A DNA stretch of 64,000 nt from Chloroflexota bacterium (GCA_030607875.1 JAUWJD010000015.1:731-64730), one strand, 5' to 3'. Counted from the stretch's first letter, positions 18,169-63,601 are shown. Translations and numbers: made by a program. Notes: generated from the letters alone by a model not told the origin.

Positions 18169-18196
18169 ATGAACCGCCAGACCCTTTAGGACGACG

Positions 18197-18236
18197 AGAA
18201 TGGGGATGCTTCCACGGGAGCATCCCCATTCTTTAT
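18197..18236. terminator. Bidirectional hairpin between convergent dnaN and the GH1 gene
   Basis: Perfect 14-bp stem AGAATGGGGATGCT (18197-18210) / AGCATCCCCATTCT (18219-18232), then tta. Confidence 0.65.
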
Positions 18237-18282
18237 GACACAAGGCTGCCAAGAGTAAAGCCCGCATCGAGTGATCGCAGCG

Positions 18283-21035: not shown

Positions 21036-21064
21036 ATTCTAGCCGCAAGAGTCTACGGCGTCAA
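21036..21064 (-). promoter_or_regulatory. Promoter-like site (TTGACG-17-TAGAAT, minus strand) for asnS, overlapping the 3' end of the upstream CDS
   Basis: The reverse complement reads ttgacg ccgtagactcttgcggc tagaat. It predicts a 5' UTR of about 115 nt. Confidence 0.4.
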
Positions 21065-28114: not shown

Positions 28115-29167
28115 GTGTCAGAGGCATGTGAGGTCAAGCGCCTGACGGCCATGACTTCGGCGGCCGGCTGAGCGGCCAAGCGCGGCCCCGCGGCTTTGGC
28201 GCAGGTTCTGCGCCCTTTGAAAGACATGTTCACCAGCGCCGACTATCCCAATCTATTGGTCGGACTGGAAGTCAGCGACGACGCTGCGGTGTACAAAGTC
28301 AGCGATGAACTGGCAATCATCCAGACGCTCGACTTTATCACACCGATAGTGGACGACCCGTACACTTACGGGGCCATTGCTGCCGCCAACTCCATGAGCG
28401 ACGTCTATGCCATGGGCGGGAAGGTCGTCCTGGCATTGAACATCACCTGCGTTCCCGCGGACCTTCCACCCGGTATGGTAACGGAAATCCTACGCGGCGG
28501 AGCAGAAAAGGTCCGTGAAGCGGGTGGTGTTATTGCCGGCGGCCATACCATAGATGACGATGAACCCAAATACGGGATGGCAGTAATAGGCCTTGCACAT
28601 CCCGAGCACATCGCCACCAAATCTGGTGCACGCCCTGGGGATGTGTTGCTGCTGACCAAACCTCTTGGCATAGGCATGATTACCACGGCGGCGAAGAGCG
28701 ATGTAGCTGAAGCAGAGCACTTGCAGGCCGCTATCGAGGTCATGCTCCAACTGAACCGTATCGGGGCAGAAATCGTTCCCCGGTTCAGTCTGAAGGGCAT
28801 GACGGACATCACCGGTTTTGCTCTGTTGGGCCATGCCCAGGAAATGGCGGAGAGCAGCAATGTGCGTCTGCGCATCCACTCTAAACGAGTACCATTGCTA
28901 CCAGGGGCGCGGGAATACGCTGAACAGTGCCTCTTCCCAGGCGGCAGCAACCGCAATCATGACTATTTCGAACAATGGGTTCGTGCTGCGCCCCACATCA
29001 CCGAAGAGCTGTTGATGCTGCTCTATACACCAGAAACCTCTGGCGGACTTTTGGTCGCTGTCCCCCAGCAGGAGCTTGAGGGCGTAGAAGCTTGTCTGCA
29101 CGCAGCCGAGCAAGCCTACTGGATCATCGGTGAGGTCGAGGCTGGGACTGGAATCGAGTTGGACTGA
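28115..29167 (+). CDS. selD: Selenide, water dikinase SelD, itself a selenoprotein (Sec at codon 19)
   Basis: The track ORF (28196) lacks the catalytic N-terminus. Reading in frame from GTG 28115 (GGGAGG 8 nt upstream) gives VSEACEVKRLTAMTSAAG-U-AAKRGPAALAQVLRPL, which matches the SelD glycine-rich loop G(C/U)GxK with UGA at 28169-28171. Downstream motifs are DDAAVY and the AIR-synthase fold. Confidence 0.88.
28169..28200 (+). other. UGA(Sec) recoding site in selD with GC-rich stem-loop candidate (bacterial SECIS-like)
   Basis: tga at 28169-28171. GCCAAG (28175-28180) can pair with TTTGGC (28195-28200) around a GC-rich internal segment. The structure was judged by eye only. Confidence 0.5.
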
Positions 29168-29216: not shown

Positions 29217-29305
29217 ATACTGAACCAGTACGTTCACCTCTTTCTGTCCGTCCAGCATGTTTGTCAGCCCGTTCAATTCGCGGCACTTGCAGGAGGAACC
29301 ATCCA

Positions 29306-39300: not shown

Positions 39301-40588
39301 CGCTGCGCACCTTGTTCACCATCTCCATGATGCGATGCTGCACGTCCAGCACCGCCACGTGCCAGGGCTTGCTCAGGCGGTATAGATCTGGAGCCAGCAA
39401 CAGCCATCCCCGTTCCGTGACCGCGTTGGCGTAGAAAACCCCCTGGCCATTGTTGCCGTACAGCACTTCCTCCGCAAAGCCGCCCCAGGAATGCAGTGCC
39501 ACTACCAGTGGCACTGGCTCTGCCGGGGGGTAGCCTGTTGGCAGGCGCAGGTAGGCCCAATTCTCCAGGCCATCAACCTCGCTGGTGGGGATGGTGATCC
39601 TGAGGATGGTCGGGGCAGTGACGCGCGTTGGTGTCAGGGTGATCGTTGCAGTTGATGTGTGGGTCGGTGTTCGGGTCGGCGTGCGCGTGTTGGTGGGCGT
39701 GCTTGTATAGGTAGGCGTGCGCGTACGTGTCGGCGTGAACGTGGGGGTCGAGGTATTTGTCGGCGTTCGGGTAGGGGTGTTCGTACTGGTTGGCGTGAAC
39801 GTAGGCGTGGGCGTATCAGTCGGCGTGTTGGTCGGCGTAGGCATGGGGGTGTAGATGGGAGCTGGTCCCTGGTAGGTTACCACCAACTTGGGGCGGTGAG
39901 CGAGCGCGGCCTCACTGCTGCTAAAGTTGATGTATCCACTACTGAAGGCGCTGTCTCCGCGCAACAATACGCCGCTATTAGGCAAACTCTGGTTGACCCA
40001 GCCCTGGACCACCGATGTCAGATCGAACTCGTACCACCTGAGAATGGAGTTGATGATCCCTCCAGCCTCAGGAGAAGTGCGCCGGTCGGTTTCAGTGTCC
40101 TCGCAGCCGGGCTGGCCCCAGGGCTGTGTTGCGGAAGCCACGTTCCAGGTTACCTCGGAAATGACGTTGGTGCGGGTGATGTAATACACAGACATCGCCG
40201 AGCCGCTGCCACTCCAGCCAGACGCATACAACTGGAGAGTGGCAGACACAATCACTGCTTCGGACGGGATGGGGGCCAGGTTGAACTTGACAATGCTGGC
40301 CCGCCGCTGTTTGTATCCCACGCGGATCGCTGCCTCTGCAGAGTAATTGCGGTGTGGCGCATAAGCATACATGTGGGTATCCTCAGCGCCGGAGTAACCG
40401 TTGAGGCCTTCCTGAAAGACAACGGTGTATTCGTCCCAATCTGCAGCAGCCAAGGGCACCCCCTGTTCCGTGCCCCTGTCGTCACCAACAGGGGCTATCT
40501 CCTGAGCTGAACTTACTCCCAGGAACAGCAAGGCAATAGAGAGGCCCAGCAGGGCTACGATGGTTACTGCGGTGTATAATCTATTCAT
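36350..40588 (-). CDS. Giant (about 1412 aa) secreted protein: DNRLRE-type module, alpha/beta-hydrolase (esterase/peptidase S9-like) domain, two more DNRLRE-type modules, long Pro/Thr linkers
   Basis: Signal peptide MNRLYTAVTIVALLGLSIALLFLGVSSAQE (ATG 40588; TTG 40606 is an alternative). Nucleophile elbow IGVSGGGY within VVALHSWGG.. context. Three 'L(V/I)(K/Q/R)F(N/D)L' modules. A TPT-repeat linker of about 200 aa. The C-terminal region carries YEAFLPVIRR. Confidence 0.82.
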   Translation of the reverse strand: MNRLYTAVTIVALLGLSIALLFLGVSSAQEIAPVGDDRGTEQGVPLAAADWDEYTVVFQEGLNGYSGAEDTHMYAYAPHRNYSAEAAIRVGYKQRRASIVKFNLAPIPSEAVIVSATLQLYASGWSGSGSAMSVYYITRTNVISEVTWNVASATQPWGQPGCEDTETDRRTSPEAGGIINSILRWYEFDLTSVVQGWVNQSLPNSGVLLRGDSAFSSGYINFSSSEAALAHRPKLVVTYQGPAPIYTPMPTPTNTPTDTPTPTFTPTSTNTPTRTPTNTSTPTFTPTRTRTPTYTSTPTNTRTPTRTPTHTSTATITLTPTRVTAPTILRITIPTSEVDGLENWAYLRLPTGYPPAEPVPLVVALHSWGGFAEEVLYGNNGQGVFYANAVTERGWLLLAPDLYRLSKPWHVAVLDVQHRIMEMVNKVRSEYGVDDSRIYLIGVSGGGYRAILMAEKYPDLIAAAVDVKGFTNLRDWYWEDHSGFPGVDCSGNHGQWLCWDTGAGPPTGLTGGPQYERYSCQYPHNDGLVRNLKHVPVAILHNTGFDPDPEDPSNETYSIVPKHHARDLRDAIQHWDSDHELFYREFPGGHGTDPPAADQADLMDWLAAQHLNVDDPYLSLSIKTDESKGYYWLHIDQEPRPGGAESNPWTATEVSYDPRTGTIDATVTDTLRTALRFNLLEMGLAPAARYVVEEQDLQSGAFALSHSLPVDGVLAVSTSSGGEHHLYVYPETPHRRVSILEQAQDTYLDAWSPLSRPYQEQQLKLRKDDVFSPLIQFDLADLPAAADILSAAIRLYVDAARNDPPESLQVNAYKVNRTWIDSQASYYQARSGVNWAMQGCRGVPADRDAEACSSYEIQGIGVWSSFDVTTVLQEWLDDPASNHGVVLKCSGYLSPGYYEFASSEHPDISLRPELLVVYESSGPGSTPTRTVTPSRTPTSTPTLTHTPTPTPTGTVSSTPSRTSTSAPTNTWTPTPTSTPSPTITRTPTDTLTPTIGPTPTDTLTPTVTPTPTETLTPTATPTRTQTPTITQTPTDTLTPTISPTPTETLTPTATSTETLTPTITPTPTEALTPTITSTPAETLTPTTTTPATTTLTQTQTPTGTPMPTSTPTSTPTPTGTPFPHSTPFISLFQNGVWPEPSYAGVSDTYIDGHRVDANIGQGYELRVYYDGRQKILLRFDVAHYIPSNAVVTGARLELYAYYRGIGGISTLIGVHEVLRPWTEDGATWNDAAPGEPWQLAGCKGVDDRASDPAAVARFHYTQQWQVWEGQELTELVQRWVSAPTTNYGVALAALPGSLRQWWTLYSSQSMRDPAQRPRLSVSFYLQPPTPTPTATPTRTFTPVPTRTNTPTRTATPTHTMPSHYEAFLPVIRRVESSAAVSSNGVLGEQGYSVHPATYPQDEPVVWSRGDAQ

Positions 40589-40946
40589 TCTCCGGTCTAC
40601 TCCCAACGATAATAGTCCTTAATGCTAACTCTCGACGCTCCGTCTGTATTGGACCCATAGCCCGCCATTACACCTGGATCCCCTTCCCAGGCGGACGGCA
40701 AGAACCTCGTTTCACGCTGAGTGAGGTCCTACCGCTTCGTCCACCGAAGGTTGCCAAACCCCCTCTGACTCGCTCATCATGTGAAACGACTGCCTGAGTC
40801 TAGCAATCCCATCGAGCGGGACGAACTGTCGACGCAGTACTCTGTAACAATGAATGCAAACTTCTGTAACTTTTCGTGCATTCTGTGGAAGAATCTTGGG
40901 CTGGCGCATAGGGCGCGGTACATAAGCCATGCCTGGGGTAAACACC

Positions 40947-46147: not shown

Positions 46148-46175
46148 TTGCGTTTCTTGGGAGTTGTATTATAAT
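46148..46175 (+). promoter_or_regulatory. Promoter (TTGCGT-16-TATAAT) about 310 nt upstream of the moaD-like/aor operon
   Basis: TTGCGT at 46148-46153 and TATAAT at 46170-46175. No better candidate lies closer to 46488. Confidence 0.45.
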
Positions 46176-46487: not shown

Positions 46488-46766
46488 ATGGAATTCACTG
46501 TAGAGTTTTTCGGCCTTCCACGACGCTTGAGTGGAGCCAAAGAGACAACCGTCCAGGTCAAGCTGGAAGCTACCCTGCGCGACGTCGTCAAGGCGCTGGC
46601 AGAGCGGTTTCCGGCTTTCTTGGGCAACCTCGTTGACCCCAAGACCTACGACCTGGAAGAGCCTTATTTCTTCAACATCAATGCACGCTTTGTTCCACGT
46701 AGTTTGGAGCACCACCCCATAGAAGGGGATAGACTATTGTTACTATTCTTGGAGGCAGGAGGCTAA
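46488..46766 (+). CDS. MoaD/ThiS-family ubiquitin-like beta-grasp protein with C-terminal Gly-Gly
   Basis: 92 aa ending ..LLLLFLEAGG*. The MoaD-like pattern (V.FFG.lr...g....v......tl.dv...L) is present. The gene stops 3 nt before aor. TTG 46467 is an alternative start. Confidence 0.7.
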   Translation: MEFTVEFFGLPRRLSGAKETTVQVKLEATLRDVVKALAERFPAFLGNLVDPKTYDLEEPYFFNINARFVPRSLEHHPIEGDRLLLLFLEAGG

Positions 46767-46769
46767 AAC

Positions 46770-48605
46770 ATGTATTGGGGCAAGATTCTGCACATTGACG
46801 TATCAAAACGCAAGTCACGCGTGCAGCGCGTCAGCAAGAAGTGGTTGAAGAAGTACGTCGGCGGTGTGTGCATGGCATCACGGCTGGCCTACGACAACAT
46901 CCCCAAGGGAGCAGATCCGCTGGGGCCTGAGAATGCCGTGTGCTTTGCCAACAGCGCCTTCTCTGGCACTATGGTCCCTGTAGGCACCAAGTACGCGGTT
47001 GCTCACAAATCCCCGCTGACGGGCTTCCTGGGCGATTGCCTGGCCGGCAGCTACTTCGCCGCAGCGTTCAAGCGTGCCGGCTACGACGGCATTGTGATCA
47101 AAGGCAAGTCAGATAGTCCCATCTGGGTCTTTGTCGATGACGACATGGTCTCCTTCGAGGACGCCTCAGACTTGATGGGACTGGAGACCTTTGAGACCGA
47201 GGAGGCCATCCGCGCCAAGGTTGGCGACCAGCGAGTTCGTGTCTGCACCGTCGGGCCAGGCGGTGAGCGACTGGTTCGCTTTGCCAACCTGACCAATGAC
47301 CGAGGCCGCCAGGCGGGACGGACCGGACCTGGTGCGAGCCTGGGCGCCAAGCTGGTCAAGGCCTTGGCCATCCGCGGCACCCACTCCGTCAAAGTAGCCG
47401 ACCCGGAGAACCTGCTCAAGGTGTGTAAGAAGCTGGGCGAGCTGGCCCAGACCACCAAGACGGAGAAATACCGCATCCTGGGCACACCAGCGAATGTGCT
47501 GGCCATGAACCGCCTGGGCGTTCTCCCCACGCGCAACTATCAGAACGGTGAGTTCGAAGGCGCGGAGAAGATCAGCGGTGAGGTCTTGCACGAACGCCAT
47601 ACGGAGAAGGCTGTGGCCTGTGTCGGTTGTCCCATCGGTTGTGAGCAGGTCGCCCGGGTGAGAGAGGGAATCTATGAGGGTGCCAGAACCTCGATCGACT
47701 ACGAATCCCTCTTCGCGCTGGGGCCCAACTGCGGCATCGCCTACCTGCCAGGCATCATCGAAGCGATCCACCGCTGCGACAGGTGGGGCATAGACACTAT
47801 GAGCACTGGCGTGACCATCTCCTGGGCGATGGAGTGCTACCAGCGAGACATCCTCACCAAAGACGACTTTGACGGGTTGGAGCCTGAATGGGGCAACCAC
47901 GAGGCAGTCGTTGAGCTGGTGCGGCGGATTGCCTACCGCGAAGGCATCGGCGACCTGCTCGCTGAAGGCACCAAGCGTGCTGCCGACAAGGTGGGCAAGG
48001 GCTCTGAGCATTTTGCCATGAACGTGAAGGGACTGGAGTGCGCTGGCTACGATGGGCGTGGTTTCCAGACCTTTTCTCTGGGCTGCGCCGTCGGCACGCG
48101 CGGGCCTTGCCACAACCGCTCACTGGCCTACGAGCCAGATGCCAAAGGCAAGGTGGATCGCCTTTCAGCCGGACCAGAACGAGGGATGCTGGCCAAAGAA
48201 GCGGAAGAGTTCGCCGGAGTCTTGGACATCATGATGTTCTGCAAGTTCATCCGTGGCTGTTTCGACGACATGTGGACGGATGCTCCTGAAATCTGGAAAT
48301 ACAGCACGGGGTTCGATATGACCAGCGAGGAATTGCACCAGTTGACTGAGCGATCATGGAACCTGAAAAAGTCCTTCAACATACGCGAAGGTTGGACGAG
48401 GGAGGACGACTGGGTTCCGCCGCGCTGGCTCAAAGACCCCCTGCCTTCAAAGGGTTCGAAGGGAGCCGTCATTAAGCCTGAAGATATGCGCATGATGCTG
48501 GATGCCTACTACGAGGCACGCGAATGGACTCCCGAGGGCCTCATCCCCAAGAAAAAACTGATCGCCCTCGGTCTGGACGACATTGCTGAGGATATAGGAG
48601 TCTAA
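46770..48605 (+). CDS. aor: Aldehyde:ferredoxin oxidoreductase family tungsto/molybdopterin enzyme
   Basis: AOR N-terminal domain (GKILHIDVS..), pterin/FeS motifs NDRGRQAGRTGPGASLGAK, CVGCPIGC, DYESLFALGPNCG and GLECAGYDGRG; 611 aa. Confidence 0.93.
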   Translation: MYWGKILHIDVSKRKSRVQRVSKKWLKKYVGGVCMASRLAYDNIPKGADPLGPENAVCFANSAFSGTMVPVGTKYAVAHKSPLTGFLGDCLAGSYFAAAFKRAGYDGIVIKGKSDSPIWVFVDDDMVSFEDASDLMGLETFETEEAIRAKVGDQRVRVCTVGPGGERLVRFANLTNDRGRQAGRTGPGASLGAKLVKALAIRGTHSVKVADPENLLKVCKKLGELAQTTKTEKYRILGTPANVLAMNRLGVLPTRNYQNGEFEGAEKISGEVLHERHTEKAVACVGCPIGCEQVARVREGIYEGARTSIDYESLFALGPNCGIAYLPGIIEAIHRCDRWGIDTMSTGVTISWAMECYQRDILTKDDFDGLEPEWGNHEAVVELVRRIAYREGIGDLLAEGTKRAADKVGKGSEHFAMNVKGLECAGYDGRGFQTFSLGCAVGTRGPCHNRSLAYEPDAKGKVDRLSAGPERGMLAKEAEEFAGVLDIMMFCKFIRGCFDDMWTDAPEIWKYSTGFDMTSEELHQLTERSWNLKKSFNIREGWTREDDWVPPRWLKDPLPSKGSKGAVIKPEDMRMMLDAYYEAREWTPEGLIPKKKLIALGLDDIAEDIGV

Positions 48606-48607
48606 GA

Positions 48608-49099
48608 ATGGAAAAACAATATGCCCACATCGTTTGCGATCCGGTCAAATGTGTCGGGTGCGGAGACTGCGAACTGATCTGCTCCATGGTCAAACACGGA
48701 GTTTTTGACCCGTCTCTGTCGCTCATTCGCACCGTGCGCATCGAACCCATCGTAATGCTGGCAGTCAACTGTCGGAACTGTGCCGACGCCCCCTGTGTCC
48801 TGTCCTGTCCACGCAACGCGCTCACCCAGGATCCAGAGAAGGGCATCATCCTGGTGGATACGGACCTGTGCGACGGCTGCGGCTGGTGCATCGAGGCCTG
48901 TGAGTTTGGCGCGATCCTGCTCAACCCCAGCACGAAGAGGGTAGAGATATGTGACCTGTGCGCCGAATTCGACGAGCCGCAGTGCGTCGTCTATTGCGAG
49001 AAGGATGCGCTATCTCTGAGCGTGCCAGACGTCATTGCGCAAAAGACCAGGCGTGATGTCGTCAGCAAGTTGCTCCGGGAACTGGTGGCGCCAAGCTAA
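48608..49099 (+). CDS. Multi-[4Fe-4S] electron-transfer subunit (AorA/BamC/HybA-like)
   Basis: Cys clusters CVGCGDCELIC, CRNCADAPCVLSCP, CDGCGWCIEAC and CDLC...CVVYC. It starts 2 nt after the aor stop. Confidence 0.85.
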   Translation: MEKQYAHIVCDPVKCVGCGDCELICSMVKHGVFDPSLSLIRTVRIEPIVMLAVNCRNCADAPCVLSCPRNALTQDPEKGIILVDTDLCDGCGWCIEACEFGAILLNPSTKRVEICDLCAEFDEPQCVVYCEKDALSLSVPDVIAQKTRRDVVSKLLRELVAPS

Positions 49100-49119
49100 G
49101 CAACAGTAGGAGTGGAACA

Positions 49120-49154
49120 ATGGCGGATGAGGCGCATCCCGCCTCATCCGCCAT
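49120..49154 (+). other. Perfect 15-bp intercistronic hairpin between the Fe-S gene and hdrA
   Basis: aaTGGCGGATGAGGCG catcc CGCCTCATCCGCCAtt-like palindrome (49120-49154) with no U-tract. Confidence 0.7.
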
Positions 49155-49205
49155 GTCCTGTAGAAAGGCATACACATGCCTACAACGTCTACGCAGGAGA
49201 AGTAC

Positions 49206-51674
49206 ATGAGCGAAAACGATGATCTGAGGATTGGAGTCTATGTCTGCCACTGTGGCTCCAACATCGAAGGTGTCATTGACACCAAGGCAGTAGCGGAGTA
49301 TGCATCCACGTTGCCAGGTGTGGCTTGGGCCACAGATTCTCTGTACTGCTGTGCTGACTCGGGTCAGAACGAGATCGAACAGGACATTAACGAACACAAC
49401 TTGAACCGTGTGGTGGTGGCAGCCTGTTCCGTGCGCCTGCATGAGCCTACCTTTCGAGCTTGCGTATCGAGGGCCGGCATGAATCCCTTCCTGTTCGAGA
49501 TGGCCAATATCCGCGAACAGGACACGTGGGTGCACTCACACGAGCCAGAAGCCGCCCAGGAGAAGGCAAAAGACCTGATCGCTGCTGCAGTAGCAAAGGC
49601 CCGTTTTCTAACGCCGTTGGACATGATCGAGGTGCCGGTGACCAAGGCAGCGATGGTGATCGGCGGCGGCATCGCCGGAATTAGCGCGGCACTCGACCTG
49701 GCTGACATGGGCATCAAGACCTACCTCGTAGAAAAGGAGCCCAGCATCGGGGGAAGGATGGCACAACTGAACAAGACCTTCCCTACGATGGACTGTAGCA
49801 TCTGAATACTTGCCCCCAAGATGGTTGACGCGTCGCGTCACCCCAACATCGAACTCCTCACCTACACCGAGGTGAAGAGAGTCGAAGGTTTTGTCGGCAA
49901 CTTTAAGGTCTTGGTGGAGCAAAAGCCCCGCTACGTGATCACAGATCACTGCAATGGTTGTGGCGACTGTGCACCGGTATGCCCCATCGAGGTGCCCAAC
50001 GAGTTTGAAGAAGGGATTGCCCCGCGCAAGGCGATCTATATCCCGCACAGCCAGGCCGTACCACTGGTATATACCATCGACCTCGACAACTGCATCAAGT
50101 GCTACAAATGCGTCGATGCCTGCGGCAAGCTGGACGCCATTGACTTTGGCCAGCAGCCCCAGCAAAAGTGGCTGGATGTCGGGAGCCTCATCGTCGCCAC
50201 TGGCTTTGATAGCTTCGATCCTTCTGAGATAACAGAATACGGCTACGGCCGCTACGAAAACGTCATCACCACGCTGGAACTGGAGCGCATCAACAACACG
50301 GCCGGGCCCACCACTGGTCAGATTATGCGGCCCTCGGACAAGAAGATGCCTCAGAGCGTGGCCTTTATCCAGTGCGTCGGCTCCCGCGACGAGCGCTACA
50401 ACATCTACTGTTCTGGCTTCTGCTGCATGTATACCATCAAGAACGCCCTGCAGTGGAAGCAGACCCACCCCGATAGCGACGTTACCATCTTCTACATGGA
50501 CATCCGCACGCCGTCCAAAGGCTATGAGGAGTTCTACCGGCGGGCGCGTGAGATGGGCATTCGTTTCATCCAGGGACGTCCATCCATCATCACCGAGGAT
50601 CCCAACAGCGGCAATCTGTTCATCCAGGCCGAGGATGTTGGTCTGGGCCAAGTAATCGAACTCGAGTCCGAGTTGGTGGTGCTCTCCACAGCAGCTGTGC
50701 CGCGCGCCGATACTGACGAAATGGGCTCTGTCCTGAACATCAGCCGCAGCCCAAGCGGGTTCTTCATGGAATACCATCCCAAGCTGCGGCCCGTGGACTC
50801 GCCCACAGACGGCATCTTCCTGGCAGGCGCCGCCCAGGGCCCCAAGGACATTCCGGCCAGTGTGGCACAGGGCAGTGGCGCAGCCTCGCGTGCGACGCGC
50901 ATCCTCAACTCCGACACCTGGGAGATTGAGCCCATCATAGCCCACGTCTGGGAGGATCGCTGCATTTCAGCCAAGGGCAAAAAGTGCGGCATCTGTGCGA
51001 CCAAATGCCCGTACAATGCCATCATCGTGGAGCAGGGCAAGGCGGCAGAGATAACCCCGGCCAAATGCCACGGCTGCGGCGCCTGTGTGGCCGAGTGCCC
51101 GCACAACGCCATCACCCAGTTGCATTTCACTGATGCCCAGATCATTGCCCAGTTGCACGCACTGCTGGCTCACGAGCCAGAGAAAAAGATCCTGGCCTTT
51201 ATGTGCCACTGGTGCAGCTACGGCGGTGCAGACAACGCCGGAACCAGCCACTTTGAGTACCCGGCATCTTCGCGCGGCATCCGCGTGATGTGCTCAGCGC
51301 GCATGGACCAGGACTTTATCTTCGAAGCGTTCCGGCTGGGAGCCGGGATGGTGCTGGTGTCCGGCTGCCACCCCCAGGACTGCCATTACATCAGCGGTCA
51401 GCAAGTAGGCGCAGCACGGTTCGACAAGTTGGCCAAGCGGCTTGAGAAAATGGGCATCTCGCCAGAAAGGTACCGTGTGGAGTGGATCTCGGCGGCAGAA
51501 GGCGCCAAATACGCGCGGGTGATCAAGGAGATGGACGAGACTCTGAAATCACTCGATCCCAAGGCGTTGAAGGAAGAAATTGAAAGGACGCGCCCTGAGT
51601 TTGAGCGACGTCTTCGTCGTTTGCCCGAGATTCCGGATGTGGCTGAAGCTCTTGAAATGACTGTGCCTGCATAG
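49206..51674 (+). CDS. hdrA: Heterodisulfide reductase subunit A-like flavoprotein fused to a C-terminal MvhD domain; selenoprotein (Sec at 49803-49805)
   Basis: Track ORFs 49176-49805 and 49821-51674 are in the same frame, separated only by TGA. Read-through gives [36 protein letters not shown], matching the HdrA motif ..FPT.DCS(M/I)C(I)L.PKM.. where Cys/Sec alternate in known HdrA proteins. N-terminal [13 protein letters not shown] motif [12 protein letters not shown], two ferredoxin inserts, and an MvhD-type tail [31 protein letters not shown] precedes ATG 49206. Confidence 0.9.
49803..49842 (+). other. UGA(Sec) recoding site in hdrA with downstream hairpin (SECIS candidate)
   Basis: tga at 49803-49805. 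The hairpin GG(T)TGACG-cgtcg-CGTCACC at 49823-49842 starts 18 nt after the UGA. Confidence 0.55.
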
Positions 51675-51686
51675 AGAGGTGTCTGC

Positions 51687-52274
51687 GTGCAACGCCTGAA
51701 CCAATTTGATCCAACATTCAAAGACGAAGTCATGGCTGAACCTGGCGGCGAGCACCTGCTGCGCTGTTATTCATGCGGCACGTGCATGGCCACTTGCCTG
51801 GTCCGTCGCCAGTATCCTGACTATAACCCACGCCGCATCATGCACATGGTGATGCTTGGCCTGCGAGACGAGGTGCTGGGCAGCCATGTCATCTGGCGTT
51901 GCTCTGCCTGCGATGATTGCTACGAGCACTGTCCGCAGGGCATCCACATTTCGGACTTATTCAAGGCCTTCCGCAGCATCGCCTTGCGCGAGGGCCGCTC
52001 TCCGCCTGGTCCCACAGCCCGCGTCAACGAGCGTACCTGTGTGGCTTGCGGCCTGTGCGTGGAAGGCTGTCCTTACGACGCGGTGGAACTGGTACAGAAG
52101 CGGGTTCTTGGCCATGAGAAGACCGTTGCTCAGGTGAACGCGGCGCTGTGCATGAGCTGTGGCGTATGCGCTGCTTCCTGCCGCTCGGCTTCCATTGACT
52201 TGGTGGACCATAGCGATGCCATCCTGTTCGAGTGCATGCAACAGGAGCTGCTGGGTGCGGAGGTGGCTGCATGA
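51687..52274 (+). CDS. HdrC-like Fe-S protein fused to a 2x[4Fe-4S] ferredoxin domain
   Basis: CYSCGTCMATC...CSACDDCYEHCP (HdrC/SdhB-like pair), then CVACGLCVEGCP and CMSCGVCAASC. GTG start 12 nt after hdrA. Confidence 0.75.
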   Translation: MQRLNQFDPTFKDEVMAEPGGEHLLRCYSCGTCMATCLVRRQYPDYNPRRIMHMVMLGLRDEVLGSHVIWRCSACDDCYEHCPQGIHISDLFKAFRSIALREGRSPPGPTARVNERTCVACGLCVEGCPYDAVELVQKRVLGHEKTVAQVNAALCMSCGVCAASCRSASIDLVDHSDAILFECMQQELLGAEVAA

Positions 52275-52708
52275 GCAAATGGCAACCCAAGATCGTTGTC
52301 TTTCTCTGCCAATGGGCCCTCAAGTCCGACTCGGAATGGGCCAGACGCCACGAGCTACCGCAAAACGTGCATGTCGTAGAGGTCCCGTGCTCAGGGCGCC
52401 TCAACCCGCTGCTCCTGATGTCGGCACTCCAGCATGGCGCAGATGGCCTGCTTGTCATCGGTTGCGAACCAGGACACTGCCACTACAAGGAGGGCAACTA
52501 CTTGGCACAGCGCAAGTTCGCCACGCTGAAGAGTTTCCTGAAGACACTAGGATTGGAAGAAAGCCGTGTGCGCTTCGCCTGGTTGGGTGAGACAGAGTCC
52601 GGAACGTTCCCCAGCGTAGTTGAGGGCCTGATCAGTGAGGTGCAACGGTTGGGTCCAGCTCATGAGCTGGCTACGCGCGAGACCGTGCCCTGTGTGGTGA
52701 AGGCCTGA
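52271..52708 (+). CDS. mvhD: Stand-alone MvhD/FlxD-like protein (methyl-viologen-reducing hydrogenase delta subunit family)
   Basis: KIVVFLCQWALKSD..VEVPCSGRLNP..GADGLLVIGCEPGHCHY. The ATGA overlaps the upstream stop. The usual second Cys of the F.C.WC motif is Ala here. Confidence 0.75.
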   Translation: MSKWQPKIVVFLCQWALKSDSEWARRHELPQNVHVVEVPCSGRLNPLLLMSALQHGADGLLVIGCEPGHCHYKEGNYLAQRKFATLKSFLKTLGLEESRVRFAWLGETESGTFPSVVEGLISEVQRLGPAHELATRETVPCVVKA

Positions 52709-53676
52709 TGGGAGCAAAAGGACTAATAATGCAGGAACTTGCGGAGGCAATTCGGGAAGAAGGAAAGCGCCTGTTGGAGAGTGGCGAAGTCGACCTGGTA
52801 ATTGGCTTCACAGTAGGGACTCTGCCACTGCGCGCTGCCCCAGTATTTGTCCGCAGAGCAGAGGATGCCGAGCAACTGGTGTGGAACTCGTTCTGCGAGA
52901 ACAACCTGGCCGTCTACCTGCGAGACATCAGGGACAAAAGAATAGCCGTGGTGGCCAAAGGCTGCGACACACGCGCCATCGTTGCCTTGATCAACGAACA
53001 CCAGTTGGACCGGGACAAGATTCACATCATCGGTGTGCCGTGTCACGGCATGGTCGACCGCCGCACCGTGGCGCGTCGGGCTCCGGGCCAAGTCCTCGCT
53101 GTACGCGAGGAAGGTGAGGAAATCGTGGCCGAAGGAGAGAGCTTTTCCATTCGCCTGCCCCGCTCCAAAGCCCTCTACCGCTCTTGTGCAGCTTGCACCC
53201 ACCCCAACCCAGTGATTTACGATATACTTCTGGGAGAAGAGGTAGCGGTGTGGGCCGAGGACCCCTATGCGCATGTCCGCGAAATCGAGCTAAAGCCCGC
53301 CGCCGAACGGGCCGCCTACTTCGCCACCGAAGCACAGAGATGCATACGCTGTTACGCCTGTCGTCAGGCCTGCCCGATGTGCTACTGCGAAGAGTGCTTC
53401 GTCGACCATACGACACCGCGCTGGATCGAATCGGGAGTCACGCCAGCAGGCCTGCAAGGCTGGCAGATCGGCCGTGCCTATCATTTGACGGGACGGTGTG
53501 TGGCTTGCGGAGCTTGCGAACGTTCGTGCCCGATGGAGATCGACCTCGTGTACCTCAACGGCAAGTTACGCAAGGAGGTATGGGAACTCTACGGATTCCA
53601 GACGGGGCTCATTGTGGGAGAACTGCCTCCGCTGGCCGTTTTTCAGCCGGACGAAGGATCGGATTCCACGCCCTAG
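52708..53676 (+). CDS. Fe-S oxidoreductase subunit (FrhB-like N-terminus + 2x[4Fe-4S]; FlxC-like position)
   Basis: VVAKGCDTRAIVAL..IIGVPCHG, then CIRCYACRQACPMCYC and CVACGACERSCP. The start overlaps the mvhD stop (TGATG). Confidence 0.65.
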   Translation: MGAKGLIMQELAEAIREEGKRLLESGEVDLVIGFTVGTLPLRAAPVFVRRAEDAEQLVWNSFCENNLAVYLRDIRDKRIAVVAKGCDTRAIVALINEHQLDRDKIHIIGVPCHGMVDRRTVARRAPGQVLAVREEGEEIVAEGESFSIRLPRSKALYRSCAACTHPNPVIYDILLGEEVAVWAEDPYAHVREIELKPAAERAAYFATEAQRCIRCYACRQACPMCYCEECFVDHTTPRWIESGVTPAGLQGWQIGRAYHLTGRCVACGACERSCPMEIDLVYLNGKLRKEVWELYGFQTGLIVGELPPLAVFQPDEGSDSTP

Positions 53677-53729
53677 TCATGCATGTTTGCAGCCGTTGAC
53701 TTTCCAGCGCGGCCTATGATGGGGTATCG

Positions 53730-54752
53730 ATGACCAAGAAAAGGATCGCCAAAGAACATATCAACGCCTTTCTCGCACGGCTGCTGGAAGATTATATCGT
53801 CTATGCTCCGGCAGAGGAGGCTAACTACGTCACCTTCCGCCAGATCACAGCGCCTGAAGAAGTGGTCTGGGACTGCCTGGTGACACGCAAGCCGCCGAAA
53901 GACGTCGTCTTCCCCCAGACGGAAACGCTTTTCACCTACACCAAAGACGCGGACGTGCTGCGGCTGCAGTCTATGGAAGCGGTCGAAAAGGAGCGCATCC
54001 TGTGGGGCGTGCGGCCATGTGATGCGCAGGCCATGCTCATTCAGGATGCCGTGTTTGACACGCCAGAGGACCGCGACGTCTACTACACCAACAAACGCGA
54101 GAAGACGTGGTTGATCGGCATCGGCTGCAACCAACCGCTGAGCACATGCTTCTGCACCTCGGTAGGAGGAGGGCCCTTCAAGAAGGATGGGATGGATCTC
54201 TTCCTCACAGACATTGGAGAGGCCTATCTGGCAGAAGCCTTGACCGCCAAAGGTAAGAGGCTTTTGCACGGAAGAGGCTTCCGCCGAGCGACGAAAGCAG
54301 ACTTAAAAGCGTCCGATGCTGCAGAGCAGACGGCACTGCAACGCTTGCCAGCACCCATGAGCATGGACATCATCAAGCAGCATCTGGACGGGATGATGGA
54401 CAGTCCCTTCTGGGATGAGATACAAGCCACCTGTCTGGGGTGCGGCATCTGTACACTACTTTGCCCAGTCTGCTACTGCTTCGATATTGTGGACGAGGGC
54501 ACCACGACTTGCGGCCAGCGGGTGCGCAACTGGGATACCTGCCAGTACAGCATCTATACACTAGAAGCATCGGGGCACAACCCTCGGCCCGGCGGGCGGC
54601 AGCGGGTGCGCCAACGGCTGATGCACAAGTTCAACTACCACCTGGTCAACCAAAACCTGGTCGGCTGTGTGGGCTGCGGGCGCTGCGTGCAGTTGTGCCC
54701 TGTGAATATAGATCTCCGCCAACTACTGGCTGAGATTGGAGCGGCTGAATGA
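53730..54752 (+). CDS. Sulfhydrogenase beta / AsrA-like Fe-S subunit (FlxB-like)
   Basis: 340 aa with a C-terminal CLGCGICTLLCPVCYCFD ... CVGCGRCVQLCP, an organisation typical of HydB/AsrA. Confidence 0.7.
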   Translation: MTKKRIAKEHINAFLARLLEDYIVYAPAEEANYVTFRQITAPEEVVWDCLVTRKPPKDVVFPQTETLFTYTKDADVLRLQSMEAVEKERILWGVRPCDAQAMLIQDAVFDTPEDRDVYYTNKREKTWLIGIGCNQPLSTCFCTSVGGGPFKKDGMDLFLTDIGEAYLAEALTAKGKRLLHGRGFRRATKADLKASDAAEQTALQRLPAPMSMDIIKQHLDGMMDSPFWDEIQATCLGCGICTLLCPVCYCFDIVDEGTTTCGQRVRNWDTCQYSIYTLEASGHNPRPGGRQRVRQRLMHKFNYHLVNQNLVGCVGCGRCVQLCPVNIDLRQLLAEIGAAE

Positions 54753-55630
54753 CAACTAGAACCCAGTCACCTAAGATATCCGTCAACTCTGTACCCAATC
54801 CCTACCTGCCGCTTCCAATGCGCATCGAGCGCATACACGTTGAGACCGATGACGAAATGCTCAAGACGTTCGATCTTGCTTTTGCCCGGGAGGAGGACGC
54901 CGCTGGTTTTGATTTCCGGCCCGGCCAGTTCTGCGAGATTTCGGTGTTCGGCAAAGGGGAAGCGCCTTTCGGCATCGCGTCATCCCCCACTGAGACAGGG
55001 CCTCTGAGATTCACGGTGAACAAGGTTGGTGTAGTGACCACAGCTCTGCACAACATGAACGAGGGGGAGCTTGTTGGCCTGCGCGGGCCGCTAGGAAACG
55101 GTTATCCTCTGGAGCAATTTGAAGGGCACAACGTTGTGATTGTCGGTGGCGGCTTTGCCTTCACGACGTTGCGTTCATTGACCCACTACCTGTTGGATCC
55201 AGGCAATCGCTCGCGATTCGGGGAGATCATCATCATCTATGGAGCTCGGCGGCCCGGCCTGCTGCTGTACAAGGAAGACCTGGCAGCATGGGAGCGCCGC
55301 GAAGACATCAGTGTGCACCTGACGATTGACAGAGAAGCACCCGGGTGGACAAAGCACGTAGGTTTTGTGCCAGACGTAGTAGAGAGGGTCGCGCCAAGTG
55401 CCGAGAGCACCTATGCAGTGATCGTCGGCCCGCCAGTCATGATCCGTTTCACACTGCCCAAGCTCAGGGCACTCGGCTTTCCACCCGAGCAAGTTTTTTC
55501 GTCTTTGGAGCGGCGTATGAAATGTGGCATAGGCAAGTGTGGACGCTGCAACATCGGCCCCTACTATGTCTGCAAAGATGGCCCTGTTTTCAGCCTTGCT
55601 CAACTGGAAAGCTTGCCTCAAGAATACTAG
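54749..55630 (+). CDS. FAD/NAD(P)H-binding [2Fe-2S] subunit (sulfhydrogenase gamma / AsrB / PyrK-like; FlxA-like)
   Basis: FNR-like fold (FRPGQFCEISVFG..PFGIAS, VVIVGGGFAFTTL) and C-terminal MKCGIGKCGRCNIGPYYVCKDGPVF. ATGA overlap with the upstream gene. Confidence 0.8.
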   Translation: MTTRTQSPKISVNSVPNPYLPLPMRIERIHVETDDEMLKTFDLAFAREEDAAGFDFRPGQFCEISVFGKGEAPFGIASSPTETGPLRFTVNKVGVVTTALHNMNEGELVGLRGPLGNGYPLEQFEGHNVVIVGGGFAFTTLRSLTHYLLDPGNRSRFGEIIIIYGARRPGLLLYKEDLAAWERREDISVHLTIDREAPGWTKHVGFVPDVVERVAPSAESTYAVIVGPPVMIRFTLPKLRALGFPPEQVFSSLERRMKCGIGKCGRCNIGPYYVCKDGPVFSLAQLESLPQEY

Positions 55631-55659
55631 GGACACGTCACCACATTCCGGAGGAAGAC

Positions 55660-56553
55660 ATGAAACGCGGTACCACACGCAAACAATCGACATCAGAGGC
55701 TCTGGTCCTGGACCGCAGGATGATCACTCGCCACCAGCGGCTGGAGTTGGACCGCATCAAATGTGTGGGATGCGAGTTGTGCGTTGCCGTTTGTCCTCCC
55801 GAGGCCATCGAGTTCGTTCCTGGCGCAGTGGAGGAAGGACAGCTCGTGCAGCGCCCCACGGTGGACATCGATGCACGGAAATGCCACTTTTGCGGGGAGT
55901 GTGTAATCATCTGCCCGGTCAATGCCTTGAGCATAATCATCGATGGCGAGGAGCGCATCCTAGTTTGGGAGTACGAGGTCTTTCCCATACTGACCAAGGA
56001 AATCACCTGGGACGCCTCCAAGCTGCCCAAGGACAAGGCAGACGCCGTGGTCAAGGCCTGTCCCACGGAGGTCATCACGGTGGAGGTGACGCGCACCAAG
56101 ACAGGCAAGGTGCGGAGGGTCAAAGACGTTCAAGTGGATGAGAGCGACTGCATCTATTGCAGACAGTGCGAGGCTACCAGCCCCGAAGCCTTCTCGGCGA
56201 CACACCCGTTCGAGGGCATCATCCGCCTGAACGCCAGCCTGTGCCCATCGGGCTGCCAGGCCTGCGCGGACATCTGCCCCACCGATGCGCTGCTCATGAG
56301 TGACGGGCAACTGGTCCTCGACGATCGCTTTTGCCTGTACTGCGGTGCTTGCACGCAGGTTTGCCCGGTGCCGGAGGCGCTGCTAGTGCGGCGGCATCGG
56401 ATACGTCACACACCGATCAAATCTGGAGCCTGGACCTATGCGGTGGAGAAGCTGGTTTCCATGGAACTGGCTGCGGAGGAGATGGAACTCAAGTCCCAGG
56501 CCAAACGCCGCAGCGTCCTCAACTATATGCCTGGGGTGAAGAAACAGGAATAG
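55660..56553 (+). CDS. Polyferredoxin (multiple 4Fe-4S dicluster domains)
   Basis: CVGCELCVAVCP, CHFCGECVIICP, CIYCRQCE, CPSGCQACADICP and CLYCGACTQVCP. GGAGGA precedes ATG 55660. The 5' 315 nt of the track ORF overlap the previous gene out of frame. Confidence 0.8.
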   Translation: MKRGTTRKQSTSEALVLDRRMITRHQRLELDRIKCVGCELCVAVCPPEAIEFVPGAVEEGQLVQRPTVDIDARKCHFCGECVIICPVNALSIIIDGEERILVWEYEVFPILTKEITWDASKLPKDKADAVVKACPTEVITVEVTRTKTGKVRRVKDVQVDESDCIYCRQCEATSPEAFSATHPFEGIIRLNASLCPSGCQACADICPTDALLMSDGQLVLDDRFCLYCGACTQVCPVPEALLVRRHRIRHTPIKSGAWTYAVEKLVSMELAAEEMELKSQAKRRSVLNYMPGVKKQE

Positions 56554-56587
56554 CCGATAGGCCGAAGAGCTTTGCCACCCATGCACA

Positions 56588-56625
56588 AGAGCCACCAGGG
56601 AAATCCCCTCTGGTGGCTCTTTGCT
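56588..56625 (+). terminator. Hairpin terminator closing the redox operon (convergent with the GT-C gene)
   Basis: AGAGCCACCAG (56588-56598), loop of 11 nt, CTGGTGGCTCT (56610-56620), then ttgct. Confidence 0.6.
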
Positions 56626-62905: not shown

Positions 62906-63601
62906 ATGTCAACATCGCCAAGACCCCCATCAGAGCATGCCTTCAATGCTGTGGCCTCGCTCTACGATTGGTGGTTCGAAACCCCGCTGGGTCATACCAC
63001 CGATGAATTGGAAAAAGATCTGCTCTACCACCTGGCCAGGCTGCGCCACGGGGAACGCGGGCTGGACGTGGGCACCGGCAGCGGCCACTTTGCCGTTGAT
63101 CTGGCGGCACATGGGCTCACCGTGGTAGGCGTGGACCTGTCGGCCCCCATGCTGGCCGTGGCGCAGAGCAAAGTCTCTGCGGTGCACTTGGTTCGAGGAG
63201 ATGCAGCCACATTGCCGCTGGCCGCCGGTGCGTTCGACCTGGTGCTTTCGGTGACGACGTTGGAGTTTGTGGCTCACCCAGAGCAAGCCATCGACGAGAT
63301 GTGGCGCGCGGTGCGCCCAGGCGGGCGGCTGGTAGTCGGAGTGCTCAATGCACTCAGCCCCTGGGCCTGGGCACGACGACGCGAGAGCAGGAAACAAGAG
63401 ACGCCGTTCTCCCATGCGCACTTTTTCTATCCTTGGCAGTTCGTCGGGCTGTTGCGCCAGTTAGGGCCAGTCCAGTGGAGCAGCTCGGTCTTTATCGGGC
63501 CGAACGGCAGGGGGCTGCGCTGGGCCTGGGGACTTGAGCGGCTCGGGCGCGCCCTGTTCAGACCATTCGGTGCATTGTTGGTAGGGAGGGTAACGAAATG
63601 A
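62906..63601 (+). CDS. Class I SAM-dependent methyltransferase (Methyltransf_11-like)
   Basis: Motif I LDVGTGSGHFAVDLA, acidic loop VVGVDLSAPML, and post-I/II motifs DLVLSVTTLEFV and LRPGGRLVV-type (VRPGGRLVVGV). Confidence 0.85.
   Translation: MSTSPRPPSEHAFNAVASLYDWWFETPLGHTTDELEKDLLYHLARLRHGERGLDVGTGSGHFAVDLAAHGLTVVGVDLSAPMLAVAQSKVSAVHLVRGDAATLPLAAGAFDLVLSVTTLEFVAHPEQAIDEMWRAVRPGGRLVVGVLNALSPWAWARRRESRKQETPFSHAHFFYPWQFVGLLRQLGPVQWSSSVFIGPNGRGLRWAWGLERLGRALFRPFGALLVGRVTK

Follow-up and report, generated by a model that had tools for sequence, protein, structure and literature searches.

Why should genes for an AOR-family pterin enzyme and its small iron-sulfur (Fe-S) subunit, WorS, be followed directly by one for an HdrA-type flavoprotein, and with what do the products of such an array exchange electrons? 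The question is raised by ten plus-strand genes (46488-56553) found within a stretch of DNA of 64,000 nucleotides (nt), here ‘the window’, to which coordinates refer unless a related locus is named. The host is an uncultured bacterium of the Chloroflexota/Anaerolineae type, i.e., a metagenome-assembled genome (MAG) known from DNA alone. The ten-gene block is far beyond chance, as the same gene order is found again in about 80 distinct lineages. Tentatively, and short of an even likelihood, the block may be viewed as one operon which encodes an HdrA-class, flavin-based electron-bifurcating aldehyde/carboxylate oxidoreductase, with the complex, the assignment of partners to its arms, and its direction being what we infer. 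Taken by itself, the joining of AOR-WorS with HdrA in a single electron-bifurcating complex is probable.

Relatives were gathered by two scans. One was of genomes using the AOR, which supplied eight contigs with AOR identities of at least 51% and extending far enough downstream of AOR-WorS. The other was of metagenomes using HdrA, which supplied 80 loci with HdrA identities of at least 67%, 38 of these with at least 3 kb of upstream sequence. Individual loci are designated by L numbers. AOR-WorS is located directly upstream of the HdrA clade in 36 of those 38 metagenomic loci, and the order WorX-AOR-WorS-HdrA, with WorX a ThiS-like gene, is seen in seven of the eight genomic contigs. The first-pass annotation, which was made from the raw sequence, had left to be checked whether this AOR clade normally stands alone, and on these counts it does not. 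AORs at 30-37% identity, by comparison, have WorS upstream and no HdrA. The exceptions are three. L004, among the genomic contigs, has AOR-WorS truly without HdrA downstream. L082 is a contig of low quality which is rearranged and has toxin-like insertions. In L041 (8841-9360), residues 1-106 of AOR are joined to residues 119-163 of WorS, with HdrA-Flx-polyferredoxin intact, that is, a deletion derivative, from either decay of the operon or an artefact of assembly.

The 94 loci resolve into 81 clusters at <97% nucleotide identity, and this operon type is spread, as 81 lineages, across sediment, digester, and subsurface Chloroflexota. Identity of the AOR to the window rises and falls with that of HdrA (Spearman rho 0.89, n=55) and with that of the polyferredoxin (0.82, n=32), and the core thus is inherited as a unit. 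Inherited together, that is, are WorX-AOR-WorS, a selenocysteine (Sec)-containing HdrA fused to MvhD, an HdrC-like protein plus second MvhD, and the polyferredoxin. A full Flx-variant operon is present as well in a MAG labeled Candidatus Zipacnadales (Armatimonadota), i.e., L112 (GCA_052745275.1, JBRALA010000077.1). That locus is nearly collinear with a Chloroflexota locus, L030, and its occurrence reflects either horizontal transfer or mis-binning/mislabeling.

Such linkage bears on the view that no joint complex exists. AOR-WorS, by that account, would be an ordinary ferredoxin-dependent Class II tungsten oxidoreductase (WOR), and HdrA/Flx/polyferredoxin would be a separate ferredoxin:NAD(P) (or H2, or formate) balancing enzyme, the two being co-transcribed or co-regulated through a shared ferredoxin pool. 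L004 is what such an arrangement should look like, as is L041 with its HdrA-Flx kept after loss of most of AOR-WorS, and a strong, conserved hairpin found between worS and hdrA is consistent with it too. Nevertheless, adjacency is near-obligate, parts co-vary over about 80 lineages even while the associated redox cassette swaps, and an FmdF-like wiring polyferredoxin is present. An HdrA without a low-potential partner and without HdrB, furthermore, would be equally short of a third substrate. Separate enzymes consequently are quite improbable.

What then is the catalytic subunit, g02 (genes are numbered as in the table below)? It contains both AOR-family Pfam domains (AFOR_N, 9e-67; AFOR_C, 4e-122), and its best solved relatives are PfAOR (1aor, 1e-118), with an alignment spanning residues 3-603, and then AmWOR1 WorL (9mqx_D, 1.5e-109). 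Alignment to 1aor indicates retention of the CxxCxxxC motif plus distal fourth Cys, i.e., the [4Fe-4S] ligands, and of the pterin-binding motifs. Equivalents of PfAOR Thr243, Glu313, Tyr427, and His448 are all conserved in the same alignment, and these are the residues which define aldehyde-oxidizing WORs (PMC13328260). On sequence, g02 thus is an AOR of the aldehyde-oxidizing type with a W/Mo-pterin, its metal and activity being predicted. BamB identity, with BamB being the catalytic subunit of class II benzoyl-CoA reductase (BCR II), was considered and rejected, as the match to BamB is weaker as well as partial (4z3w_A, 1e-53, residues 4-418) and the four aldehyde-type residues are present; the first-pass view of g02 as a canonical AOR rather than a BamB accordingly stands. 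GAPOR identity was rejected also (NCBIfam, 46 bits versus a cut-off of 1300). The window contains no gene for a tungstate transporter.

The small subunit, g03, has as its best solved relatives WorS (9mqx_E, 3e-25), AorA (8c0z_C, 1e-20), and the WOR5 small subunit. Preceding both is g01, which matches ‘WorX’ as defined in PMC13328260, i.e., as ThiS-like and adjoining many WOR genes. Presumably g01 is a factor for pterin-cofactor maturation rather than a subunit, and a ThiS-like gene is kept directly 5' of the AOR in relatives. A GAPDH gene (Gp_dh_N/Gp_dh_C) is found directly upstream of WorX-AOR in L029 (8611-9621) and L030 (1-438), which may hint at a glyceraldehyde-type substrate or may be coincidence. 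Two Flx variants, L030 (10720-12450) and L112 (10407-12137), additionally possess, after the polyferredoxin, a second and shorter AOR paralogue of 576 amino acids (aa) without its own WorS, and in both an alpha/beta-hydrolase gene is next.

The flavoprotein, g04, matches HdrA 5odc_A across its full length (840 bits, residues 16-663). All cluster motifs are present, as expected of an FAD-type HdrA; the NCBIfam HdrA2 cut-off of 1100 bits is passed narrowly; and the C-terminal domain matches MvhD. Sec in HdrA was among the first-pass claims, and the in-frame TGA is indeed there, with TGA found at that HdrA codon in 92 of 96 related loci and TGC or TGT, i.e., Cys, in the other 4/96. In 5odc_A the motif is CSIC, and the Sec takes the position of its second Cys, resulting in Cys-x-x-Sec in g04; going by the motif, that second Cys would be Cys205 of M. 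marburgensis. In solved complexes the [2Fe-2S] cluster of MvhD and the bifurcating FAD have this Cys pair between them (PMC13580544).

Located 19-40 nt downstream of the TGA is a 20-nt palindrome, GGT(T/G)GA(C/T)GCGnCGCGTCA(C/T)C, which is present in 85 of 92 TGA loci and 0/4 Cys loci, and which is conserved even at wobble positions. There thus is good comparative evidence for the palindrome as a putative bacterial selenocysteine insertion sequence (SECIS). The case rests on conservation since the single-sequence fold downstream of the TGA is thermodynamically unremarkable (z -0.4, not significant). A selD gene is found 18 kb upstream of the operon (28196-29167, plus strand; TIGR00476, 354 bits versus a cut-off of 125), and no selA, selB, or tRNA-Sec occurs within the window. 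Given the full-length match to a solved HdrA, the CSI-Sec motif, and selD within the window, HdrA appears to be competent.

Were this instead a non-bifurcating, NAD(P)+-dependent AOR like AorABC (a Class III WOR), with HdrA and the Fe-S proteins serving as one long wire from tungsten to an FNR-type subunit, then a strongly conserved and complete HdrA, with its Sec-containing Cys pair, intact MvhD triad, and HdrC-like arm, would go unexplained, as would variants of the operon which lack an NAD(P)H unit. The idea is very improbable indeed, even though an NAD(P)-binding FAD subunit is encoded here and Class III WORs are able to reduce NAD+ via WorS nanowires (PMC13328260).

Next along the operon is g05, which scores as HdrC (TIGR03290, 1.4e-20) and also as the N-terminus of QmoC (NCBIfam). 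Residues 5-109 match HdrC 8rvv_C (4e-18) and residues 114-183 match MvhB/FwdF, so this protein is called HdrC-Fd here. It occupies the place of HdrC-HdrB. HdrB itself, which has two CCG domains, is indeed missing, as claimed in the first-pass annotation: a CCG domain is present in 0/10 cluster proteins (Pfam), and no HdrB was found among the scanned open reading frames (ORFs) of the window.

Two MvhD-type units are specified, one fused to HdrA and the other separate (g06). In methanogen MvhD, Cys16, His68, and Asp71 are located along the route leading from the [2Fe-2S] cluster to the flavin (PMC13580544). This triad is complete in the HdrA-fused MvhD of 90/90 relatives as well as in that of the window. 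The second MvhD, as aligned to 5odc_D and 9sw2_D, has Ala/Glu/His at these positions in the window, and a complete triad is retained in only 5 of about 73 instances. From that disparity, the fused MvhD would seem to be a canonical, flavin-feeding unit and the second MvhD a relaxed [2Fe-2S] relay which is tied to the HdrC arm. Cys16 alone proved ambiguous for telling the two apart, with 33 Cys versus 28 non-Cys, and was replaced by the full triad. The second MvhD always accompanies HdrC-Fd, as a free protein with Flx and as a fusion in Mvh, Fdh, and some no-cassette variants, and it is absent where HdrC-HdrB directly follows HdrA (L007, L008, L086, L111). Both sets, that is, HdrC-HdrB and HdrC-Fd/second MvhD, are present in L076 and L081.

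The polyferredoxin, g10, has as its best solved relative FmdF of the Fdh-Hdr-Fmd supercomplex (7bkb_K, 8.5e-42), followed by FwdF (5t5i_F, 2.4e-32) and MvhB (9sw6_G). Of loci whose cassette was identified (or found to be missing), 50 extend beyond the polyferredoxin, and in 48 of these no further gene of the operon follows it.

Between the second MvhD and the polyferredoxin is found what is here described as the ‘cassette’, which varies over the 66 lineages that could be classified. It is an FlxCBA-like NAD(P)H unit, the window type, in 23 lineages; a Vhu/Mvh-type group 3c [NiFe] hydrogenase, small plus large subunit, in 26 (variant B, which repeats the methanogen mvhD-G-A-B gene order); a g07 homologue plus a Sec-containing FdhA in 7; HdrC-HdrB with two CCG domains in 6; and nothing in 4. 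Flx and Mvh variants are interleaved along the gradient of identity, and exchange of the cassette thus is recurrent and recent. The clearest case is L040, in which the AOR is 85% identical to that of the window, with the same tldD/pmbA flank, and yet the cassette is a hydrogenase. HdrC-HdrB directly replaces HdrC-Fd plus second MvhD in L007, L008, L086, and L111, and is found 3' of the polyferredoxin in L076 and L081; HdrB of L007 and L008 is supported by PF02754 (1e-26). Directly after the operon of L008, an HdrC-HdrB variant, are complex I membrane-subunit-like ORFs (17785-20202; nuoA/H/J/K-like by eye), and through these the operon could be connected with a respiratory complex dependent on ferredoxin or quinone.

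The cassette of the window consists of g07, g08, and g09. Of these, g07 has as a homologue (28% identity, E 2e-30) the 263-aa protein encoded ahead of Sec-FdhA in the Fdh variant. Matches of g08 to sulfhydrogenase HydB (3e-54) and AsrA (1e-45) are both under equivalog cut-offs, and g09 matches PRK08345 (1.6e-66) and AsrB (1.6e-54), all by NCBIfam. The architecture is Flx-type, that is, FlxA/B/C/D-like by domains, with the HydB/HydG and AsrA/AsrB matches sub-cut-off and the likeness to Desulfovibrio Flx one of domain content. The first-pass claim of an NAD(P)H module which is sulfhydrogenase-type rather than NuoEFG-type therefore holds at the level of domains (0/10 proteins with NuoE/F/G), whereas as a fixed part of the system the module does not hold up, being a swappable cassette.

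How might these parts be wired? For characterized Hdr complexes the answer is that Flx, Mvh, and Fdh all are donors. It consequently may be asked if the wiring here is canonical, as with BCR II and Mvh-Hdr-Fmd, i.e., with Flx, Mvh, or Fdh as mid-potential donor to FAD and with the low-potential electron passing via polyferredoxin and WorS to an AOR which then reduces RCOOH. This is conceivable if unlikely. The same can be said for what then would happen to the high-potential electron, which would have to leave by way of the HdrC-like protein. Its acceptor would be one for which the operon has no gene, with a potential near -60 mV in the case of NAD(P)H, e.g., an electron-transferring flavoprotein (ETF), a thiol/disulfide protein, or a quinone-linked partner. 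BCR II follows the same logic, with ETF as its external high-potential acceptor; variant B has its methanogen-like gene order; a polyferredoxin link to a W enzyme is established; and the HdrC-HdrB relatives (L007, L008, L076, L081, L086, L111) show that a disulfide-type high-potential arm exists in the family. Such an acceptor is missing, however, from about 56 of the 66 classifiable lineages, and the HdrCB variants are without a donor. Unexplained as well would be a second MvhD which is tied or fused to HdrC-Fd and triad-less, though HdrA has an intact MvhD of its own.

The wiring favored here, which also is held tentatively, with confidence falling short of even, instead has AOR on the low-potential arm of HdrA, the Flx unit on the HdrC arm, and ferredoxin (Fd) at the port of the fused MvhD, all as we infer. 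Electrons of the low-potential arm would travel between HdrA's inserted ferredoxin domain, the polyferredoxin, WorS, and the W-pterin, in that order, which would be the same attachment as that of BamBC in BCR II and of Fmd in methanogen Hdr supercomplexes. The Flx cassette would take the usual place of HdrB, reached through HdrC-Fd and the second MvhD. The fused MvhD, in turn, would be a mid-potential port for electron exchange with ferredoxin. The net, reversible reaction would be RCOOH + NAD(P)+ + 4 Fd(red) <-> RCHO + NAD(P)H + 4 Fd(ox). This scheme would fill all three HdrA arms in every variant.

In terms of energetics, standard potentials are about -580 mV for acid/aldehyde, a couple matching in its low potential what Fmd and BCR work with, -320 mV for NAD(P), -414 mV for H2, about -430 mV for formate, and -450 to -500 mV for ferredoxin. 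As the mid-point is -450 mV with Flx and about -500 mV with Mvh or Fdh, and thus close to ferredoxin, the reaction would be near equilibrium, and bifurcating enzymes usually are near equilibrium. In the oxidative direction, the surplus reducing power of the aldehyde would raise NAD(P)H, H2, or formate electrons to the level of ferredoxin. In the reductive direction, an unactivated acid would be reduced without ATP.

Three observations speak for this favored wiring. Firstly, both solved assemblies of HdrA with a pterin enzyme put the latter on the low-potential arm (BCR II; Hdr-Fmd, PMC13580544), with the connection consisting of the inserted ferredoxin domain plus BamC in BCR II and of the FmdF/MvhB polyferredoxin in Hdr-Fmd. 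The FmdF-like nature of g10 supports placing the AOR on that same arm. Secondly, a cassette on the HdrC arm is supported by a second MvhD which is tied or fused to HdrC-Fd, which has lost the FAD-feeding triad, and which is absent when HdrC-HdrB directly follows HdrA. Thirdly, with regard to the ferredoxin port, an HdrA2 enzyme, that is, one with an HdrA-MvhD fusion, is ferredoxin-dependent (PMC5296606). Partners consisting of ferredoxin/polyferredoxin and NAD(P)(H), rather than a heterodisulfide, had been proposed in the first-pass annotation, and that proposal is compatible with, rather than established by, the lack of HdrB from the window.

The MvhD evidence fits equally well with an HdrA-class analogue of WorABCSL. 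There the aldehyde would be the donor, with electrons passing from AOR through WorS (plus polyferredoxin) to the fused MvhD and on to FAD, where the pair would be split, one electron going to ferredoxin via the inserted ferredoxin domain and the other to a sink reached by the HdrC arm. The overall reaction has been demonstrated for WorABCSL, and each HdrA arm would be in its canonical role. Such an analogue is improbable nonetheless, since an aldehyde at -580 mV reduces ferredoxin without need of bifurcation, and near equilibrium would be reached only at very low aldehyde:acid ratios. The pterin enzyme, moreover, is found on the low-potential arm rather than at the donor port of both solved HdrA/pterin assemblies, and an FmdF-like polyferredoxin suits low-potential placement. 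Its sinks would be NAD(P)+ in the window and H+, CO2, or a disulfide in relatives, and in favor of this, fermentations typically dispose of electrons as NAD(P)H, H2, or formate.

A number of points weigh against AOR and HdrA as one complex wired in the favored manner. Co-inheritance is not proof of a physical complex, the linkage being known from genes, and a hairpin at the worS/hdrA junction could uncouple expression of the two halves. In all characterized systems, Mvh, Fdh, and Flx are mid-potential donors via MvhD rather than units of the HdrC arm, and fusion of genes for HdrC-Fd and MvhD is no proof of serial electron transfer between them. The HdrC-like domain may be located off the HdrC site. 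About half of second MvhDs retain Cys16, and L053 is without a recognizable polyferredoxin within 3 kb. We know of no solved case in which a free ferredoxin is docked on an MvhD domain. Lastly, WorABCSL, as the one characterized bifurcating AOR, takes aldehyde as donor to both ferredoxin and NAD+, which favors a different wiring.

Resemblances to known systems can be considered in turn. With BCR II, i.e., BamBCDEFGHI of Geobacter metallireducens, the operon shares an AOR-family W-pterin subunit plus small Fe-S subunit, an HdrA-type flavoprotein, an MvhD-type adaptor, and Sec, and in BCR II low-potential electrons reach the W enzyme through HdrA's inserted ferredoxin domain. It differs in that the catalytic subunit is an aldehyde-type AOR rather than BamB; in that HdrA is a single, methanogen-type unit whereas BamE is a duplicated/fused double unit; in the position of Sec, here in the HdrA Cys pair and in Bam in the MvhD-like subunit; in the presence of an FmdF-like polyferredoxin and exchangeable cassette; and in the lack, among the ten proteins, of BamD (CCG) and BamGHI (Bfu/NuoEFG-type) domains.

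The closest structural precedents include, beyond BCR II, the methanogen Mvh/Fdh-Hdr-Fmd(Fwd) supercomplexes (7bkb, 9sw6; PMC13580544). HdrA is about as similar to those as HdrAs are between methanogens (840 bits), and held in common too are a triad-bearing MvhD, an HdrC-type arm, interchangeable H2/formate modules with mvhD-G-A-B order in variant B, and an FmdF/MvhB-type polyferredoxin, which in methanogens links HdrA to a W/Mo-pterin enzyme whose reaction lies below -500 mV. Unlike those supercomplexes, this system is bacterial, has AOR/WorS in place of formylmethanofuran dehydrogenase subunits (none of the latter among the ten proteins), has its MvhD fused to HdrA, and in most variants is without HdrB, with a ferredoxin domain plus degenerate second MvhD as replacement.

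WorABCSL, which is Bfu-class (Class IV; Acetomicrobium mobile, Eubacterium limosum), shares WorL, WorS, and a ThiS-like WorX, and supplies best-match WorL/WorS sequences. There, too, a bifurcating module joins aldehyde chemistry to NAD and ferredoxin. The module here, however, is HdrA-class (FAD) rather than BfuABC (FMN, NuoEFG-like), with no WorABC-type domains among the ten proteins. FlxABCD-HdrABC of Desulfovibrio and HdrA2B2C2 of Methanosarcina acetivorans share an FNR-type NAD(P)H subunit, two Fe-S subunits, an MvhD-like FlxD beside hdrA, and the HdrA-MvhD fusion, with Desulfovibrio Flx likened by architecture. As compared with these, the present operon has no HdrB, has an HdrC which is both truncated and extended, and has AOR-WorS and a polyferredoxin added. 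A further likeness, compared by description only, is Aor5 of Desulfobacterium autotrophicum HRM2, for which a figure legend mentions genes for tungsten aldehyde oxidoreductase, ferredoxin, and Fe/S proteins as drawn beside hdrA/hdrL-mvhD (PMC2702500).

The locus, that is, mixes features of BCR II, Hdr-Fmd, WorABCSL, and FlxABCD-HdrABC/HdrA2, and fails at least one defining feature of each. The evidence points to an HdrA-class bifurcating complex with a wired pterin enzyme, thus a known kind, in a combination which is undescribed, widespread, and modular. Within the full-text literature that was searched, no description was found of an aldehyde-type AOR coupled to HdrA, the sole trace being that Aor5 legend (PMC2702500), and a mention in the 2021 HdrA review literature is possible. 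Those classifications of WORs and of bifurcating enzymes which were consulted do not include it. The June 2026 classification of WORs (PMC13328260) consists of five classes and counts a WOR as bifurcating only if it has subunits of BfuABC type or is a BCR. By those criteria the present operon would be an ordinary member of Class II. A sixth WOR class might be posited, though this is rather doubtful, which would be HdrA-centered, with acid/aldehyde (-580 mV) on the low-potential arm and Flx, Mvh, or Sec-Fdh replugged on the HdrC arm in replacement of HdrB, as RCHO + NAD(P)H (or H2, formate) + 4 Fd(ox) <-> RCOOH + NAD(P)+ + 4 Fd(red).

Features of the block are collected in the table. Its ten genes, with the domain content claimed in the first-pass annotation, are all present (Pfam, NCBIfam), at junctions of -4 to +106 nt as had been given, and every gene annotation that had been read off the raw sequence is borne out by comparison with Pfam, NCBIfam, and solved structures. 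Start codons were set by the product lengths of relatives (92, 199+617, 195, 145, and 297 aa).

Table. Features of the AOR-HdrA block and its flanks, in window coordinates.
Feature	Position	Strand	Basis
g01, ThiS/MoaD-like, ends GG (WorX equivalent)	46488-46766	+	Pfam ThiS E 3.7e-6; 92-aa form agrees with relatives
g02, AOR-family pterin catalytic subunit (WorL)	46770-48605	+	AFOR_N + AFOR_C
g03, WorS/AorA-type small subunit, 4x[4Fe-4S]	48608-49099	+	Fer4_11
g04, HdrA-MvhD fusion (HdrA2-type), selenoprotein	49206-51674	+	NCBIfam HdrA2 1104 bits
In-frame TGA (Sec) in g04	49803-49805	+	motif DCSI-U-ILAPK
SECIS-like hairpin, GGU(U)GACGC-loop-GCGUCACC	49823-49842	+	comparative conservation
g05, HdrC-like N-domain + polyferredoxin-like 2x[4Fe-4S] domain (HdrC-Fd)	51687-52274	+	NCBIfam, structure matches
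g06, free second MvhD-type [2Fe-2S] protein (FlxD-like)	52271-52708	+	FlpD 2e-36
g07, Fe-S adaptor at FlxC/FdhB position	52708-53676	+	Fer4_8; weak FrhB_FdhB_C
g08, HydB/AsrA/FlxB-like Fe-S subunit	53730-54752	+	Fer4_22 9e-30
g09, HydG/AsrB/PyrK/FlxA-like NAD(P)H-binding FAD/[2Fe-2S] subunit	54749-55630	+	FAD_binding_6, NAD_binding_1, DHODB_Fe-S_bind
g10, FmdF/FwdF/MvhB-like polyferredoxin	55660-56553	+	NCBIfam FwdF 2e-40
Promoter-like site, TTGCGT-16 nt-TATAAT	46148-46175	+	in 417-nt PmbA/WorX intergenic region
worS/hdrA intercistronic stem-loop	49120-49154	+	fold z-score, comparative
Terminator-like 14-bp hairpin	56587-56621	+	z -3.5

The stem-loop between worS and hdrA has a perfect 15-bp stem (dG -38 kcal/mol, z -5.6) and no U-tract. 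Over 61 distinct loci the fold at this junction has a median z of -3.3, with z < -3 in 33 loci, and three other junctions of the same operons have median z near 0. In an alignment of 14 sequences, the GGCGGATGAG-arm sub-family, 91% of cells pair, 9/15 pairs are compensatory, and 0/500 shuffles are equal to this, a count of compensatory changes which is biased upward since the 14 sequences were partly picked by motif. Homologous stem-loops are seen in L001, L003, L026, L033, L037, L038, L040, L042, L043, L046, L049, L068, L084, and others, many loci having a short TCCTGT motif 3' of the stem-loop. A second hairpin family (GGATGAAACGGATCGG...) is found at the same junction in L050, L054, L056, L059, L064, L066, L067, and L071. 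Lacking a U-tract, the junction hairpin looks more like a processing/stabilizing element or partial attenuator than a full terminator. By analogy with (WorSL)3:WorABC and Bam(BC)4, it may be speculated that the hairpin fits with an excess of WorLS over the Hdr core.

Bounding of the block by a promoter and a terminator, another first-pass claim, stands only in part. Both flanking sequences exist. The 3' hairpin is found 34 nt past the last stop codon and ahead of a convergent gene, and it went uncalled by a terminator scan as just UUU, rather than a proper U-tract, follows its stem. The promoter-like site has a perfect TATAAT along with a weak -35 element (3/6 matches), fails the consensus criteria of a promoter scan, and is statistically meaningless, with promoter-like matches in the region no commoner than in shuffles. 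No riboswitch was matched in the 417-nt leader (Rfam, E up to 1). The sole Rfam match in the window is a thiamine pyrophosphate (TPP) riboswitch (RF00059, 62736-62847, plus strand, 65.9 bits). It is directly upstream of an ORF (62906-63601) whose best matches are S-adenosylmethionine (SAM)-dependent methyltransferases (UbiE/MenG/DVU_1556 family), and no thiamine gene, so that the regulated gene has been mis-called or else riboswitch and gene are an uncommon pair.

Elsewhere the window carries housekeeping genes, i.e., a dnaK operon, dnaN, a class II D/K/N-type aminoacyl-tRNA synthetase, uvrD, and tldD/pmbA, with selD as the exception. Three very large ORFs, near CBM9- and DUF11-domain genes, probably encode surface or secreted proteins (21053-25090, minus strand, 1345 aa; 29261-35251, plus strand, 1996 aa; 36350-40606, minus strand, 1418 aa).

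What would such an enzyme signify? To our knowledge, only four families of electron-bifurcating enzymes exist, only two assemblies, methanogen Hdr-Fmd and BCR II, contain HdrA coupled with a pterin enzyme, and the reaction of the sixth-class reading is known for no enzyme. If real, this would be a third HdrA/pterin-enzyme assembly, and a bacterial one, and would extend the 2026 classification of WORs. The paired canonical and degenerate MvhDs, along with Cys-x-x-Sec, would represent a natural experiment on [2Fe-2S] feeding of the bifurcating flavin, a step flagged as an open problem in recent structural papers. For application, the enzyme would be a pattern for biocatalysts which reduce carboxylic acids in linkage with H2, formate, or NAD(P)H. 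For the bacteria themselves, here is a constant core with plug-and-play NAD(P)H, H2, formate, and disulfide modules, by which fermenters would be seen to use, or indeed reach, the -580 mV acid/aldehyde couple without ATP, that is, to reduce unactivated acids in an ATP-independent manner or instead to double the yield of ferredoxin from aldehyde oxidation.

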